Source: a virus
Lineage: Duplodnaviria; Caudoviricetes
Reading direction: 5' to 3' (one strand)
DNA length: 64,000 bases
Virus record (IMG/VR): IMGVR_UViG_3300043754_000129
Coordinates: 192,001-256,000 of that record
Under the pieces are notes generated by a model, which ran no database searches, was not told the origin of the DNA, and was given only the letters and a program-made list of their open reading frames with translations. Below are positions 1,319 to 47,590 of the stretch, piece by piece (the first letter of the stretch is position 1; each line of letters begins with the position of its first letter). Position numbers and translations under genes: made by a program.

Positions 1319-3541
1319 TTACGGCAGCTGCGTCACCGTGTCGAACTCGACCGGCACCTTGCTGTACGCAATGGCGCTGATACCCGACACGTTGATCACA
1401 CCCAGAACCGGCAGGTTGCAGATGTGCAGGAACGACGGCTGGACCGTGAGTTCCTTCGACTGTGCGCCGTTGCGGATCATCGGCAGGACGACCGTGACTT
1501 CCGGCTTCCATGCCATGTTACCGAAGTGCAGCGGGTTCGGCGTGCCAGCCTTCGCGCTCGATTCGTCGCCGAAGGACATGACGATCTTGCCAGCCATGCG
1601 CTCGTTCAGCGTCGACACGATCTTGACGTCGAACTGACCGCCCAGCGTGCGAAGGTCGCCCGTCACCATCAGGTAACGTGCGATGTACGGATCCGTACCG
1701 ATGATGACCGTCGGCACCGGGCCAACGCCACCAGCGAGCGCATCCGAGGCTGCCTTGTAGCCCGACTGGACGTACAGCGTGTACGCGATGTCGCGCAGGC
1801 AGTTGACCAGCGTCGCCTGGATGTCGGCCGCGCGTTGATGCGCGCTCAGCGAGTCCGTCGACGAGTCGATCTCGAGGTTCTTCTCGATGTAAGCCGGCTG
1901 AACGATGAAGCGCGAGACGCCCAGGATTTCCGGCGTATCGGCAGCGCTGTTCGGCGTGGCCGTCGTGTTCAGGGCGCTGGTCGTTTCAGCGAGCAGGTCC
2001 TGAATGCGGAGCAGTTCGTCCACGGCTGCGTTCGACGTGCGGATGCGCGTTGCCGTGATGAGTGCTGCCAGATCCGACGAGTCGTTCGCGTCGCCGACTT
2101 GCATCGGACGCGGGATCGTGATCGGGGCCAGGAGCGGCACCGTGTAGATCTGGTTGTAGAAGTTCGTGTTCAGCAGCTGACCACGTTGACGACGGTTCGA
2201 GTTCGTGCGACGAGCGTCGAGGTCGTAACCGATAACGGTCGCGCCCGTGAAGATCGCTGCCAGCGTTGCACCCGTGCCCGAGCCGAGACCCAGAGCGACG
2301 TCGCTCGAGTTCTTGATCGAGGTCAGGCCGACCGACGACGTGTTGATTTCCGTGTCGCCGAGTTCGAGGTTCACCGAACCGAACATCGAGAAGCCGAAGC
2401 GTGCTTCGTAGTTGCCCGAGACCAGCGGTGCGAGCAGTTGCGATGCGCCGCCGTCAGCCAGCGTCGTGTTCGCGTTGATCAGCAGCGTTTCCGTCTTGAA
2501 CTGGAGGTTCATCTGACGGTAGACGTTCTGCGGAGCGTAGTTGAACACAGCCAGCGGCAGCTGACGCGTGTTGAACTTCACGACTTCGGTCGTCGGCGTG
2601 CCGCCAACCGTGCCCGTGAACTGCACGTACACTGCGTCGAGCGCGAGTTGCGTGTCGATCGCGTCGGTGATGTCGAGGATACCCGTTTCGAGCAGGGCTT
2701 CCGTCTGCGACAGACCGAGCAGCGAGAACTTCTGGCCGACTGCGAGCGGCGCCGTCGTGATCTGCGTGTTGTCCGTCAGCTGCACTGCGTACGGCGCGAC
2801 TTGCGCGTTCGTGACGAAGTAGCCTTCGCTTTCCGTGCGGTAGACCGGGACGATCTTCGTCTGGTCGTTGCGCAGGATGGTCGGGTCGATCACCGCTTGC
2901 ACGATGTTGCGACGGCCGAAGTTCTGCGACGGAGCACCCGAGATCGGACGCTTCGGTTCGTTGTACACTTCGATCAGGCGGATCGAGACCGTGTAGCCGA
3001 CTTGGTCGGGGGTCACGACGACGGTCGGGAAGAACGCTTCACCGAACTCGTCTTGGCGCGCAGCTTGAAGGTTGTACGCGACCGAGTACACGACCGCGTT
3101 CTTGTTTTCCTTCTCGTCGTACGCTTCCAGCGCCGGCTTGATACGATCGAACATGCGATCTTCGCCGCCCGGCACGATGAACTTCATCGACTCGGTCGAA
3201 ACCTGGTCGTGCTTGATGCCCGCGTGCAGGAAGCCAGCCATGTCGCCCGTGAGCGCCATCGCAGCCAGACCAGCGTTGCGCTGCGCGGCCGTCAGGTCGT
3301 GCATGCCGTGTTCTTTCAGGATGCTCTCGAGCGAAGCGTTCAGGCCTTCGAGGCTGTCGTTCAGTTCGCGCGTGAGCGACGAATCGATCGCTTCCATCGA
3401 GATGGCGGCTTGCGAGATTTGACGCGACGCGAATGCAGCGCCGCTGTGGTTCATTTCTTGGCGCAGGGCGCCCACCAGGGTGTCGACCGGCGAAGCGACC
3501 GAAGTGCCGATGCGACCCTTGTTTGCAAACAGAGCGGTCAT
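1319..3541 (-). CDS. Major capsid protein (phiKZ gp120-like)
   Basis: 740 aa; propeptide with SME/SLE protease sites; QDEFGEAFFPTVVVTPDQ, PNPLHFGNMAWKPE and ELTVQPSFLHICNLPV motifs typical of phiKZ-like capsids; next to the DnaB gene as in phiKZ. Confidence 0.9.
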   Translation of the reverse strand: MTALFANKGRIGTSVASPVDTLVGALRQEMNHSGAAFASRQISQAAISMEAIDSSLTRELNDSLEGLNASLESILKEHGMHDLTAAQRNAGLAAMALTGDMAGFLHAGIKHDQVSTESMKFIVPGGEDRMFDRIKPALEAYDEKENKNAVVYSVAYNLQAARQDEFGEAFFPTVVVTPDQVGYTVSIRLIEVYNEPKRPISGAPSQNFGRRNIVQAVIDPTILRNDQTKIVPVYRTESEGYFVTNAQVAPYAVQLTDNTQITTAPLAVGQKFSLLGLSQTEALLETGILDITDAIDTQLALDAVYVQFTGTVGGTPTTEVVKFNTRQLPLAVFNYAPQNVYRQMNLQFKTETLLINANTTLADGGASQLLAPLVSGNYEARFGFSMFGSVNLELGDTEINTSSVGLTSIKNSSDVALGLGSGTGATLAAIFTGATVIGYDLDARRTNSNRRQRGQLLNTNFYNQIYTVPLLAPITIPRPMQVGDANDSSDLAALITATRIRTSNAAVDELLRIQDLLAETTSALNTTATPNSAADTPEILGVSRFIVQPAYIEKNLEIDSSTDSLSAHQRAADIQATLVNCLRDIAYTLYVQSGYKAASDALAGGVGPVPTVIIGTDPYIARYLMVTGDLRTLGGQFDVKIVSTLNERMAGKIVMSFGDESSAKAGTPNPLHFGNMAWKPEVTVVLPMIRNGAQSKELTVQPSFLHICNLPVLGVINVSGISAIAYSKVPVEFDTVTQLP

Positions 3542-10467: not shown

Positions 10468-12912
10468 ATGGACCTGAATACCCTCATCCATAAGGCGGCG
10501 TTTGGTGACCGCGGCCTCACGCTCGAGAACCTGGACGACTCCCTGCCCGAAGGTGGGGATTCGGAGCTGGGCAGCTACGCTGACAGCGCTGATGCATGGG
10601 CGGACTACGGCAATGCGATGAATGTCGCCGCTGAAGCCATCCGTGACTACAGCATCCAGCTCGAAGGTCTGATCGAGCGCAAGGAACTGAACGCGGTCAC
10701 GCTCGGCCTCATCCGTGACGCCGCGCAACGCTGCGCGACGACCGTCGGCTACGAAATCAATCTGCCGTCGATGGAAAGCGTCGAGACGCAATCGATCGAA
10801 GAACAGGGCGCGGTGGCGCTCGAAGGTTTCCGTCAGGTGATCTTCAATCTGTTCCAAGATTACGTGCTGCACTTCAAGCACCACAAGGACGTGATCGGCG
10901 ACTTCTTCCGCTCGACCTCGGGCATTCTCAACAAGTACGAGAAGAAGACGCTCCAGAACAAGGCCGAGTACAACTCGAAGAAGAACAAGATCGGCAATCA
11001 GGAAATCGCCGTGGCCTTCGTCGGCCTCGACTACTTCCTGTCGAACACGAAGGCGATGAAGGAATACCGCTTCAGCGACTTCATGGGCCTGCTGCGTCAA
11101 GATCGCCAGATGTCGAACTTCGCGCTCAAGGAATACCCGAAGCGCGTGCTCGCCGAAATCGATGCACTCGCGAAGCTGCTGCGCGGCTCGAGCCTGAAGA
11201 CCGACGCGGACGTGCAAAAGCTCGCGAAGGCTGTCGAGCAACTGAAGTCGCCCTCGGAACTGTTCGACGAGCACCTCCTGGACGTGGAGGGCTTCGGCTC
11301 GTCCAAGTTTGTCGCTGTCAAGCGCGGCGGCAAGAATCGTCTGGACGTGCTCGCGGCCGCCAAGCCGGTCACGCTGTCCAAGCCCATCGGTGCTACGGTC
11401 GGTAACGCCATCATGGCGGGTGTGCAGTCGTTCGGTGGTCGCGTGGTGGCGTCGGCTCTGCCGGTGGTGGGTGCCACGACGGGCGGTATGGCTCACGCGG
11501 TTGCTGCGCCGGTCATGGCTGCTCGCGCCATCTACGAAGGCGTGGGCGACGACAAGGGCAAGATCATGCTCAACGGCAGCGACATCGGTCGCGTGCTGGA
11601 AGCCGCGGAAGGCTACATCAACGACGTGCGTTACTTCCTGTCGACTGAGCGTGAAGTGGCGCGCATGATCGACGAGATGGAAGGCGCGGTCAAGGCTGCG
11701 GAAGCCAAGGGTCAAGCCGACGCGAAGGCCGAAGACGCAGGCGAACACGCCATGGGTTCGGTGCATCTGTACGAGAAGATCCTCGCGGTCTCGCGCGTGC
11801 TGATGCGTGCCGTGCAAACGCCGGCACAGCAAGAAGTCGCTCGTGCGCTGAAGGCCAGCAAGTACCTGAACTACCTGGCCCTGCGCGCCATCTTCAATGC
11901 GAAGAACCACGCCATGGAAGGCATGGACAATCCGGAATCGGGCGCGTTCGCACGCGGCGAAGGCGACGCCAACCTGCACAAGGAAAGCACGCCGGCAGTC
12001 AACCCGGGCCTGGCAGCGCAAGCCAAGCAGATCAATGGCGACAAGCCGATCAACACGGACGACCTCGATGCCCCGATGCATGCAGCAACGGAAGGCAAGA
12101 AGGACGAAGCCACGGACATGGTGCATGGTGCAGCGGTCGACCCGAGCAAGTCGACGTGCGACATCGAAGGCCACGCCGTGGATCCGACGAAGACGGGCGA
12201 AACGCCGGAAATCGAAGGCGCGGAACTGAAGCCGGCCAAGGAAGCCTACACCGAAGTTGAAGAAGGCGCCGTGGGCGAACATCACGCTGCGATCATCGAC
12301 AAGATCTACGACAAAGCCGAAGTGATTCCGAGCGAAGGCATTCGCATTCACATCGTGCACGACGTGTGTCAAATCGAGGCCGAGTTCGACAAGAAGATCA
12401 AGGCACATCCGGAACAACGCGAAGCTCTCCTGAAGGAAGCGGGCGAACGTCTGGACGCTGTCCTCGAGCGCGTAGACGCCACGTTCGAACATCACGGCTG
12501 GGATGTCGACGGCAAGAAGGTCGCTCTCGAAGGCCTGATGGAAACCGCCAAGTCGAAGAAGGCGAAGTTCAAGGGCGCCAACGATGAAGAAATCGCGGCA
12601 CTCGAGAAGGCCATCGGCTTCAAGCTTCCGGTCGCGTACCGCAAGTACCTGAAGGACTTCGGCTACATTGCTTGCGGCGGCAATGAAGTTTACGGCGCAG
12701 CGCGCGGTCACCTGAGCGCGGTCGAGATGTACGAAGACCTGAGCCGTAGCGATACGTTCCCGAAGCAAGCCATCCCCCTGATGGAAATCGGTGACGGCCA
12801 CTACTACATCCTGAACGCTGGCAAGGTGGTCGAATGGGCCAACGGCGGGATCGTCAAGAGCGGCAGCATGAGCTTCACCGACTTCCTCGAGAAGAAGGTG
12901 TTCGAAGATTAA
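10468..12912 (+). CDS. Internal head polyprotein with C-terminal SMI1/KNR4 (SUKH) domain
   Basis: SME, ALE, AME, ATE and ALE protease-type sites; C-terminus GANDEEIAALEKAIGFKLPVAYRKYLKDFG...NEVYG...PLMEIGDGHYYIL matches the SUKH pattern. Confidence 0.75.
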   Translation: MDLNTLIHKAAFGDRGLTLENLDDSLPEGGDSELGSYADSADAWADYGNAMNVAAEAIRDYSIQLEGLIERKELNAVTLGLIRDAAQRCATTVGYEINLPSMESVETQSIEEQGAVALEGFRQVIFNLFQDYVLHFKHHKDVIGDFFRSTSGILNKYEKKTLQNKAEYNSKKNKIGNQEIAVAFVGLDYFLSNTKAMKEYRFSDFMGLLRQDRQMSNFALKEYPKRVLAEIDALAKLLRGSSLKTDADVQKLAKAVEQLKSPSELFDEHLLDVEGFGSSKFVAVKRGGKNRLDVLAAAKPVTLSKPIGATVGNAIMAGVQSFGGRVVASALPVVGATTGGMAHAVAAPVMAARAIYEGVGDDKGKIMLNGSDIGRVLEAAEGYINDVRYFLSTEREVARMIDEMEGAVKAAEAKGQADAKAEDAGEHAMGSVHLYEKILAVSRVLMRAVQTPAQQEVARALKASKYLNYLALRAIFNAKNHAMEGMDNPESGAFARGEGDANLHKESTPAVNPGLAAQAKQINGDKPINTDDLDAPMHAATEGKKDEATDMVHGAAVDPSKSTCDIEGHAVDPTKTGETPEIEGAELKPAKEAYTEVEEGAVGEHHAAIIDKIYDKAEVIPSEGIRIHIVHDVCQIEAEFDKKIKAHPEQREALLKEAGERLDAVLERVDATFEHHGWDVDGKKVALEGLMETAKSKKAKFKGANDEEIAALEKAIGFKLPVAYRKYLKDFGYIACGGNEVYGAARGHLSAVEMYEDLSRSDTFPKQAIPLMEIGDGHYYILNAGKVVEWANGGIVKSGSMSFTDFLEKKVFED

Positions 12913-46075: not shown

Positions 46076-46106
46076 GACGGCATAAAAGCCAGGCCGAAGC
46101 CTGGCT
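46076..46106 (-). terminator. Terminator ending the tRNA cluster
   Basis: AGCCAGGC-TTCG-GCCTGGCT followed by TTTATGCCGTC. Confidence 0.85.
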
Positions 46107-46111
46107 CAATA

Positions 46112-46201
46112 TGGCAGAGAGAAAGGGATTCGAACCCTTGGTGCAGTTGCCCACACATCGCCTTAGCAGGGCGACTCTTTAAACCGCTCGGACATCTCTC
46201 T
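46112..46201 (-). tRNA. tRNA-Ser(GCT)
   Basis: 7-bp acceptor, TCGCC-CT-GCT-AA-GGCGA anticodon arm, long variable arm, G73, encoded CCA. Confidence 0.92.
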
Positions 46202-46206
46202 AGAAA

Positions 46207-46290
46207 AGGGGAGCGGGCTGCAAGTGGTTTCGAGCCACCACCAAACTATCGATGCATGCATTCACGATAGCCCAGTTCCTACCGGAGCCC
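46207..46290 (-). ncRNA. tRNA-like cloverleaf with 13-nt palindrome-containing loop; not a canonical tRNA
   Basis: D-like stem CCGGT/ACTGG, stem CTATCG/CGATAG around TGAATGCATGCAT, T-like arm GGTGG-CTCGAAA-CCACT, bulged acceptor, no CCA. Confidence 0.45.
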
Positions 46291-46312
46291 CGCACTGAAG
46301 AAAAAAGGAAAG

Positions 46313-46392
46313 TGGGGCGCCGTAGGGGATTTGAACCCCTGTCTCCGATTCGTGCACGAACCAGCATCCTAGGCCTCTAGAAGAACAGCACC
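46313..46392 (-). tRNA. Atypical tRNA with His acceptor identity (G-1:C73) and sealed, extended anticodon arm
   Basis: Acceptor GTGCTGT/ACGGCGC, G-1, C73, CCA; normal D and T arms; 20-nt anticodon arm containing TTCGTGCACGAA. Confidence 0.7.
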
Positions 46393-46415
46393 ACTGTGAA
46401 ACACCAAACACCTTA

Positions 46416-46491
46416 GGGGTGACCACCGGGAATCGAACCCGGGACCCTCGGGGCCACATCCCGATGCTCTACCAATCTGAGCTATGGCCAC
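46416..46491 (-). tRNA. tRNA-His(GTG); no encoded G-1, 3' end CC only
   Basis: Canonical cloverleaf, TCGGG-AT-GTG-GC-CCCGA, C73; base at -1 is T. Confidence 0.88.
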
Positions 46492-46515
46492 ACCTAAGCA
46501 TGTCTAGTTGAAACT

Positions 46516-46593
46516 TGGCCCCTTGGAGTGGATTTGAACCACTGACACACCACCATTCGAGGTGGCCGCTCTACCAGACTGAGCTACCGCGGG
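46516..46593 (-). tRNA. Atypical tRNA with 8-nt anticodon loop (CTCGAATG); amino acid undetermined
   Basis: Canonical D and T arms and CCA; 18-nt anticodon arm GCCAC-CTCGAATG-GTGGT; two mismatches in the acceptor stem. Confidence 0.6.
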
Positions 46594-46608: not shown

Positions 46609-46694
46609 TGGAGAAGAGGATGGGATTCGAACCCACGCGGGCTTGCGCCTCCAGGTTTGCAATCTGGCTCCTTCAGCCTCTCGGACACCTCTTC
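46609..46694 (-). tRNA. tRNA-Cys(GCA) with long (type II) variable arm
   Basis: TT-GCA-AA loop, U73, CCA; variable arm AGGC-GCAA-GCCCGC; Tyr-like D arm. Confidence 0.85.
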
Positions 46695-46712
46695 CACTGA
46701 CACAACAAATAC

Positions 46713-46789
46713 TGGTCGGAATTGTAGGATTCGAACCTACGACCCCCTGATCCCAAATCAGGTGCGCTACCGGGCTGCGCTAAACTCCG
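46713..46789 (-). tRNA. tRNA-Pro(TGG)
   Basis: Canonical cloverleaf, C1-G72, A73, CCA. Confidence 0.95.
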
Positions 46790-46806
46790 GAACTACAAAG
46801 ACGGCT

Positions 46807-46882
46807 TGGTGGCGATGGTCAGAATCGAACTGACGACCAACGGATTATGATCCCGCTGCTCTACCGACTGAGCTACATCGCC
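46807..46882 (-). tRNA. tRNA with CAT anticodon (elongator Met or Ile2)
   Basis: Canonical cloverleaf, G1-C72 pair so not initiator, CCA. Confidence 0.92.
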
Positions 46883-46894
46883 GTACTACGAATC

Positions 46895-46982
46895 TGGTGG
46901 GGAAGATTGGATTCGAACCAATGTAGGACCTAAGCCCAACAGATTTACAGTCTGCCCCCTTTAGCCTCTCGGGCACCTCCCC
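46895..46982 (-). tRNA. tRNA-Tyr(GTA)
   Basis: GCAGA-CT-GTA-AA-TCTGT, long variable arm, A73, CCA. Confidence 0.95.
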
Positions 46983-46984
46983 AG

Positions 46985-47280
46985 ATGTGAAAGAACACAG
47001 CCCAATTTGCCTCGTGACATTTCTGTCCTGTAACCGTTTAGCGTGTGCTAACGCAGTTTGCCGCCTGAGAATTACATCCCAGAGCAGCCCGCCGCATCAC
47101 GTCATGCCGGGTGATTAGGCCGGCCAGTCCATTAAGAGGTTGACTCATTTCACCCGCAAGCCCGTGGATTTGCCAACGGAGCCCAATTAGGGTGGTGCTG
47201 TCGAGTCAAGACCTACCACGTCCTCCTTTCGGTTAGACTAGGTAGTGCAGAGTGCCCATCCAAGTAGAGTGTACGGTCAT
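46985..47280 (-). ncRNA. Candidate structured ncRNA (~300 nt) within the tRNA operon
   Basis: Two GAAA-capped hairpins, a 7-bp long-range helix and an H-type pseudoknot found by hand; no ORF. Confidence 0.5.
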
Positions 47281-47283
47281 TGC

Positions 47284-47425
47284 TTTCTGAGGTGAGAATC
47301 GAACTCACATTTGGCCTGAGGCCGCGGCCAATGACAGCCAGCATGCGTTAGTCCCGTTGAGAGGACGCTGATTCGCATACGGGAGACTCAAGATCCCCGG
47401 GGTATACCGATTCCCCCACTCATCT
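47284..47425 (-). ncRNA. tRNA-like gene with a 72-nt structured variable region and degenerate acceptor
   Basis: D arm GGGG-GAATCGGTATA-CCCC, loop CT-TGA-GT, perfect T arm GTGAG-TTCGATT-CTCAC; only 4 acceptor pairs; no CCA. Confidence 0.5.
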
Positions 47426-47590
47426 CTCTACTATCGACACAACTTGCGTTTAGATCACTTTCCGTCCGTCGCGTTACCACAACGGTGGGCATGTCGGAGG
47501 TTTGGGTCTGAAGGTCCCTCGTACATGCATTGTGTATTCTCTCACATACTCTTACGCATTGCAGTAAAAAAATACTTTACTATCAATGAC

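Follow-up and report, generated by a model that had tools for sequence, protein, structure and literature searches.

Codon supply is the usual explanation for tRNA genes in phages, joined lately by the replacement of tRNAs that host defenses have cut. The locus considered here raises the question of what other use a phage might make of the tRNA shape, as three tRNA-like elements with enlarged or sealed anticodon loops, termed (a), (b), and (c), stand among its ordinary tRNA genes. They lie in a 64,000-nt window (the whole stretch of DNA that was analyzed) of a 323,678-bp soil jumbo phage record, whose sequence is present in four runs, all of soil-metagenome DNA and none recorded as RNA. All three elements are found where the sequence-only reading had placed them, with correct coordinates and sequences when read on the minus strand, and the two palindromes to which it drew attention, ATGCATGCAT in (a) and TTCGTGCACGAA in (b), are where it put them (Table 1). 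Because 12-nt palindromes are frequent by chance (twenty occur across the window), it is the position of such a palindrome that matters; its mere presence proves nothing.

The phage genome has 14 tRNAs in two clusters, as called by ARAGORN, and the three elements are part of the second cluster, with phage-like genes (DHFR, methyltransferase, RNase H, and phosphoesterase) flanking the locus. No close relative was found among GenBank phages, the sole related record being the distant FLC9. Among the syntenic relatives L012, L014, and L015, the content of the cluster shifts, with L014 having tRNA-Tyr alone. The long non-coding leader that precedes tRNA-Tyr is conserved in all three relatives, as is the terminator hairpin, and in a strain diverged by about 3% only 4 bases of the leader are changed. 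That leader and terminator are kept while the tRNA content differs points to one expression cassette in which the cargo turns over.

Table 1. Features of the second tRNA cluster, in operon order, followed by related features elsewhere
Feature	Record	Positions	Strand	Basis	Remarks
Large non-coding leader	window	46983-47540	-		precedes tRNA-Tyr
tRNA-Tyr, tRNA-Met, tRNA-Pro, tRNA(GCA)	window	46609-46982	-	tRNA calls	upstream genes of the operon
tRNA(GCA), long variable arm	window	46609-46694	-	tRNA call	last of the four upstream genes
(c), tRNA-shaped RNA	window	46516-46593	-	ARAGORN, Rfam	8-nt loop CUCGAAUG, G73-CCA end
tRNA-His(GUG)	window	46416-46491	-	tRNA call	between (c) and (b)
(b), tRNA-Glu paralogue	window	46313-46392	-	ARAGORN (relaxed), RNAfold, comparison with tRNA-Glu	encoded CCA
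Palindrome TTCGTGCACGAA	window	46349-46360	-		in (b)
(a), conserved cloverleaf RNA	window	46203-46298	-	fold, homologues, covariance model	closing stem GCGGG(G)CU / AGCCCGC, 3' tail UCCC
Palindrome ATGCATGCAT	window	46252-46261	-		in (a)
tRNA-Ser(GCU)	window	46112-46201	-	tRNA call	final gene of the operon
Hairpin and U-tract	window	about 46078-46108	-		after tRNA-Ser(GCU)
(a) homologue	L035	2543-2638		covariance model R1, 115 bits	closing stem UGGUCUG / UGGACCA, 3' tail ACCA
(a) homologue	L015	4881-4977		covariance model R1, 92 bits	closing stem GGCUGG / CCGGCC plus extra hairpin, 3' tail UCCA
RNAs of the 113-150-nt family	L008 (genome 92500-97000)	about 1505-1634, 2005-2130, 2250-2386, 2405-2540	-		also in L003, L035, L051
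Embedded small-protein gene	L008	1722-1940	-		73 aa
Embedded small-protein gene	L012	6172-6393	+		73 aa
Embedded small-protein gene	L035	about 2147-2422	-		about 90 aa; directly follows (c)
Embedded small-protein gene	L050	1-125	-		directly follows (c)
Split tRNA-Asn gene	L012	5521-6027	+	read by eye	inserted ORF, putative HNH-type endonuclease
Phage tRNA-Phe(GAA)	L039	about 11540-11620	+		7-nt loop UCGAAAA
tRNA-Gln-like gene	L051	9528-9602	-	ARAGORN	8-nt loop ('ttga')
Glu-like gene	L051	10325-10410	-		rejected as homologue of (b)
RNA-ligase-family protein, 448 aa	L054	1414-2760 (genome about 120783-122129)	-		OB-fold domain (PHA02142) and RNA ligase domain

The cassette has further peculiarities. 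Its leader holds a T-arm-like hairpin, and a short (T)CGTAGTA-like motif stands just 5' of many, not all, cluster genes (in spacers at window positions 46790-46895, in L008, and in L003); the recurrence of this motif may reflect a processing signal. tRNA(GCA) has a discriminator U73 and a long-variable-arm body resembling tRNA-Tyr. Relative to the 3%-diverged strain, 9 of its 86 bases are changed, far above the neighboring genes, and two changed pairs, 6:77 and 10:26 (gene numbering), are fully compensated. In tRNA-His(GUG), taken here as 46416-46492 on the minus strand, U is found at position -1 instead of the usual encoded G, C73 is kept, and the 3' end reads CC-U instead of CCA; the tRNA-His of FLC9 has G-1, and the window phage's genome has no Thg1-like gene. 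The ORF that splits tRNA-Asn in L012 comes with an intact tRNA-Asn copy of its own in the insert, and T-arm remnants follow tRNA-Gln there. A neighboring 195-aa gene was considered as linked to these RNAs and set aside: its PHROG family has no known function, and related genes occur in phages that lack tRNAs.

Element (c) is called by ARAGORN as a tRNA with a four-base anticodon ('cgaa'), which bears out the 8-nt loop that had been read from its sequence. Its score of 43 bits against the Rfam tRNA model (RF00005) is above the gathering threshold of 29 bits. Within the acceptor stem, G4·A69 and C5·A68 are mismatched. Scanning IMG/VR with D-arm and loop patterns gave further homologues in L035, L050, and L051, and in 5/5 lineages the acceptor strands (CCCGCGG / CCAAGGG), the G73-CCA end, the anticodon stem, and the loop CUCGAAUG are identical. 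None of the five homologues pairs 4:69 or 5:68, which leaves each acceptor short of seven pairs. What varies is two D-loop bases and the T-stem pairs 49-65, 50-64, and 51-63, and each changed pair still pairs; the 3%-diverged strain, represented by a Logan run and a JGI contig, has four base changes, which amount to two fully compensated T-stem pairs. The covariation score of (c) was reached by 0/500 shuffles. Two pattern scans of 185,579 prokaryote species, each represented by a single genome, did not find (c).

A distant homologue of (c) in L037 retains both unpaired acceptor positions, as G·A/A·G, but carries on a 6-bp arm a 13-nt loop without an anticodon, with CCGGCCGG inside; it is the sole tRNA-family match in a 243-kb phage record. 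The D arm, T loop (UUCAAAU), and irregular acceptor stem of (c) recur in RNAs of the first cluster, in FLC9, and in L035, where structured inserts of 45-70 nt replace the anticodon loop. A family of 113-150-nt RNAs is built in this manner, with a tRNA outer body and, as the insert, a permuted second module of tRNA-like form (T arm, capped 7-bp helix, and D-like arm) or some other structured element. Small protein genes, with products starting MFVL or MFIL, are also embedded in these tRNA clusters.

Element (a) differs from its first description. The 13-nt loop originally assigned to it gives way, on the covariation among relatives, to an 8-nt loop, AAUGCAUG, that caps a 9-bp arm in which one base is bulged, and the 10-nt palindrome, although present, is conserved only in its hexamer AUGCAU. 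The RNA consists of a closing stem, a D-like hairpin (loop AGGA), the 9-bp arm with its bulged U, the 8-nt loop, and a T arm (CUCGAAA). As a tRNA it is seen by neither ARAGORN nor Rfam (no match at E<10). CCA is not encoded at the 3' end here, and the two homologues do end in CCA (Table 1). These homologues were scored with a covariance model built from three copies, and the L015 copy was itself found with the model. In L035, (a) lies directly upstream of (c); in L015, it comes right after tRNA-Tyr, and those two are the only RNAs kept.

The loop A-AUGCAU-G is invariant in four lineages. Between the window phage and L035, the core of (a) has 3 differences in 66 columns (about 95% identity), two of which, a compensated change from U-A to C-G, lengthen the arm to 9 bp; tRNA-Tyr, tRNA-Asn, and tRNA-Ser of the same two phages are less alike, at 87.5%, 78%, and 70% identity. 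The closing stems are wholly different in sequence between lineages, and their pairing is always kept. A bulge and extra bases between T stem and acceptor mean that there are not seven paired acceptor positions. The conserved core and always-paired closing stems indicate that (a) is a structured RNA that resembles a tRNA in T arm and elbow without being one.

The sequence-only reading, which had counted canonical or unconserved loops in relatives as its own refutation, is thus supported in part: on this point the outcome favors it for (a) and (c), whereas the sealed loop of (b) was found again only in a near-identical strain. Invariant loops combined with stems that covary across 4-5 diverged lineages mark (a) and (c) as selected, non-canonical tRNA-shaped RNAs. 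Judged by this comparison of sequences, (a) and (c) are working RNAs and the reading of either as a broken, decaying gene is excluded, the covariation evidence coming from 3-5 related sequences. The three elements are real, co-located, and structurally conserved, and they evolve under purifying selection, less surely so in the case of (b).

Element (b) is called by ARAGORN at a relaxed threshold only. It folds in RNAfold as a clean cloverleaf, its 8-bp arm closed by a UGCA tetraloop, and the sealed form is the most stable state of the arm, in line with the proposal that the palindrome zips it to a 4-nt loop. In place of the 7-nt loop is UCGUGCACGA, a 10-nt palindrome that supplies three added pairs and the tetraloop. 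The D arm, the 4-nt variable region, and the T arm are of the tRNA-Glu type, and the nearest matches are ordinary phage tRNA-Glu(UUC) genes, in which even the first strand of the anticodon stem is the same. The acceptor has 7 pairs, two of them G·U; the discriminator is C73 and the preceding 5' base is G, giving a G-1:C73 pair, which is a typical feature of tRNA-His. An alternative drawing of the RNA has 8 acceptor pairs and a D stem of 6 bp. Lacking the UUC anticodon and having C73 rather than G73, (b) is a descendant of tRNA-Glu, not a member. The best Rfam match, tRNA-Sec, reaches 23 bits against a cut-off of 47, and assignment to tRNA-Sec or an allo-tRNA, which would call for 8/5 or 9/4 acceptor/T helices and a long variable arm, was rejected on that score, on the 4-nt variable region, and on a D arm that is simply that of tRNA-Glu.

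The preservation of arms and CCA in (b) and (c) had been taken to argue against decay. For (c), decay is excluded; for (b), the arms and CCA are indeed kept, but the gene may be a recent pseudogene. By this account, (b) alone would be a spare tRNA-Glu, recently disabled when a small rearrangement made its loop palindromic, and now functionless, and we consider this quite possible, if somewhat less probable than its opposite. Element (b) is found only in the window phage and the 3%-diverged strain; exact-pattern scans of IMG/VR and related records returned only normal tRNA-Glu genes and no sealed-loop homologue. (The second Glu-like gene of L051, tried as such a homologue, has a disrupted anticodon arm containing CUUAAG and folds poorly.) An intact tRNA-Glu(UUC) is present elsewhere in the genome, and cassette tRNAs turn over fast among relatives, in which remnants and split genes occur. 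Against loss of function, the four stems, T loop, and CCA end are all intact, the new loop lengthens the helix by exactly three pairs, and many positions in the acceptor and T stems depart from the tRNA-Glu of this phage and of FLC9 with every pair holding. Weak evidence on the same side is that 0/80 nt are changed relative to a strain diverged by about 3-4% in neighboring coding positions, mostly third bases. Perfect stems are also compatible with a recent loss, however.

How could such RNAs serve the phage? The reading that we favor, tentatively and at a little under an even chance, casts (a), (c), and probably (b) as tRNA mimics without a decoding role, directed at a tRNA-binding protein in a phage-host conflict over tRNA. 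Their genes would give rise to stable tRNA-shaped small RNAs, co-transcribed with the real tRNAs of the phage and presumably cut from the transcript by host tRNA-processing enzymes. They retain what proteins hold on to in a tRNA, namely the elbow formed by D and T arms and a helix resembling the acceptor, in most cases ending in CCA, and they present in place of the 7-nt anticodon loop a fixed, non-standard one, which is a sealed tetraloop in (b) and 8 nt long in the other two. Ordinary codon reading would not be expected of any of the three. Instead they may tie up or misdirect a tRNA-binding protein, with a tRNA-cleaving defense or toxin of the host as the most likely target and a synthetase or modification enzyme as the alternative.

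Several observations count for tRNA mimicry: the elements lie between real tRNAs under one conserved upstream region and terminator; (c) has the same anticodon arm, loop, and mismatched acceptor in five lineages, with compensated changes in its T stem; the (c) homologue in L037 has the odd acceptor but no anticodon; the body of (c) is shared with the insert-bearing RNAs; and the core of (a) is better conserved than neighboring tRNAs. The phage genome also encodes an RNA-ligase-family protein, from its domains a possible RNA-repair enzyme, which would fit tRNA damage as part of the life of this phage. Among potential partner genes, no Ro/TROVE, RtcB, CCA-adding enzyme, GluRS, Pth, PTH2, or Thg1 was found in the phage genome.

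Decoding by (c) is unlikely in our judgment, yet it deserves close consideration. Here (c) would be a working tRNA, derived from tRNA-Phe(GAA) with an extra C before the anticodon, that is charged and decodes either a UUY triplet or, by +1 frameshifting, UUCG; the altered loop might, in a variant of this account, give resistance to a host anticodon nuclease. The score of 43 bits and the intact elbow and G73-CCA end agree with such a role, and the loop contains GAA. The same D arm occurs in ordinary phage tRNA-Phe(GAA) genes (L023, L030, L033, and L042), and this arm together with the loop, CU-C-GAA-UG, makes descent from tRNA-Phe with an extra C probable. U20 and the variable loop GUGUC we likewise take to resemble tRNA-Phe. 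A gene with the same kind of D arm in L039 has the loop UCGAAAA; C replaces the near-universal U33 in this tRNA. The genome is without an ordinary tRNA-Phe, and the invariant parts of (c), the anticodon arm and the acceptor stem, are those in which the identity elements of a functional tRNA would lie. Yeast mitochondrial tRNA-Thr1 has an 8-nt loop and is able to decode.

Several features speak against decoding: the two adjacent mismatches in the middle of the acceptor stem, a discriminator G73 instead of A73, a U where a purine would be expected to follow the anticodon, and the L037 RNA, with the same odd acceptor stem and no anticodon. Two crude genome scans for +1 junctions at UUCG, UCGA, AUUC, and CAUU gave no excess over background, and the one frameshift candidate that was inspected proved to be two ordinary overlapping genes. 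Were (c) a decoder, phage lineages would share a natural tRNA whose anticodon loop is fixed at 8 nt. ARAGORN also reads an 8-nt loop in the tRNA-Gln-like gene of L051 (Table 1).

We regard as improbable a broader proposal, in which this group of soil jumbo phages keeps a toolkit of anticodon-less tRNA bodies, with an irregular acceptor chassis and interchangeable heads (8-nt loops, palindromic loops, or 45-70-nt inserts). Element (c) would then be either an 8-nt-loop decoder or a dedicated inhibitor of a host tRNA-cleaving defense, and (a) a self-pairing partner RNA; should the proposal hold, either outcome for (c) would constitute a phage RNA class not yet described.

Self-complementary loops could also pair with one another, as (a):(a), (b):(b), or (a):(b), and build dimers or scaffolds by analogy to the HIV-1 dimerization hairpin. 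This weaker idea, which is compatible with tRNA mimicry, seems to us doubtful. In its favor, AUGCAU is invariant and purine-flanked in the 8-nt loop of the four (a) lineages, GUGCAC, the hexamer of one HIV-1 subtype, is present in (b), and the L037 loop contains CCGGCCGG, all of which lend it weak support. Computed loop-loop duplexes amount to -6.9 kcal/mol for (a), -7.9 to -16.5 kcal/mol for (b), and -18.7 kcal/mol for L037, compared with -10.7 and -13.9 kcal/mol for the two HIV-1 loops used as reference. The duplex of (a) is thus weak, the intramolecular sealed hairpin is the more stable state of (b), and the palindrome of (c) is just 4 nt long, a length often given by chance. A reading of the palindromes as restriction sites was dropped, since GTGCAC (83 copies) and ATGCAT (45 copies) are not avoided in the genome, and a search for antisense targets showed no enrichment of complements of the (a) and (c) loops in the genome. 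Elsewhere in sequence space, CTGCAG has 0 copies in the whole genome against about 120 expected and GTTAAC 3 against 20 expected, which suggests avoidance of host restriction enzymes. Finally, sequencing or assembly error as the source of the odd loops is vanishingly improbable, and it is refuted for (a), (b), and (c), as different samples, assembled independently, show the same loops (two Logan runs, one JGI contig, three contigs of IMG/VR, and one from a metagenome).

Non-decoding tRNA mimicry, the reading that we prefer, has precedents, as tRNA-shaped RNAs that do not decode are already known in YrlA, in T4 RNAs C and D, and in viral tRNA-like ends. The tRNA cluster of phage T4 contains the stable RNAs C and D, which are small, of unknown function, and processed with the tRNAs. 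They share with the elements described here a setting among phage tRNA genes, and the likeness drawn is one of setting; they are not known for palindromic or 8-nt loops. Laboratory +1 frameshift suppressors (sufD, sufJ, and sufA6/sufB2) have one extra anticodon-loop base on a tRNA body. These suppressors and yeast mitochondrial tRNA-Thr1 resemble (c) in combining an enlarged loop with a tRNA-like body, but (c) differs in its mismatched acceptor and its anticodon-less distant homologue, and the search for a frameshifted target gene found none. The HIV-1 dimerization initiation site likewise has a six-base palindrome in a small purine-flanked loop; no common descent is involved, and dimers are only a putative property of the RNAs considered here.

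With YrlA and Y RNA-like mimics (RF02553), the elements share the imitation of tRNA elbow and acceptor, and YrlA is non-decoding. YrlA is circularly permuted, however, and works with Ro/Rsr, whereas the window phage's genome has no TROVE gene; membership in this family was rejected for that reason and because the best match has 31 bits against a threshold of 69 and spans two neighboring genes. Canonical tRNAs (RF00005) have in common with the elements the cloverleaf, the D-loop GG, the T loop UUCRAnn and encoded CCA of (b) and (c), and the tRNA operon. They differ in having a 7-nt loop with U33 and purine 37, where (c) has 8 nt, (b) a sealed 4 nt (10 when open), and (a) 8 nt on a 9-bp arm. The junction linkers of (a) differ as well, and (a) and (b) fall below the Rfam threshold. 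No Rfam model besides that of tRNA matches the (a), (b), and (c) families above threshold, and a literature search turned up no account of phage tRNA clusters whose loops are enlarged or sealed.

Two RNAs of this cluster are thus conserved beyond the adjacent real tRNAs and, with decoding by (c) as the less likely exception, are argued to be unable to serve as ordinary decoders. This combination points to a second, unrecognized phage use of the tRNA shape, and it provides short, concrete molecules with which to ask which tRNA-binding host factors phages must neutralize. One known use is in defense. Phage tRNAs counter host defenses that cleave tRNA (PMC10264068, PMC11555353), and the tRNA-Tyr of T5 acts against retron Eco7 (PMC11555353); the text of PMC10264068 makes no mention of insertion, loop size, pseudogene, or decoy. 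Like the RNAs described here, the defense-escaping tRNAs are phage-encoded and clustered with other tRNAs, and change in them is concentrated in the anticodon loop (PMC10264068, PMC11555353). They are, however, ordinary decoders with substitutions in a 7-nt loop, whereas in the cassette of this soil phage the loop itself has been enlarged or sealed.
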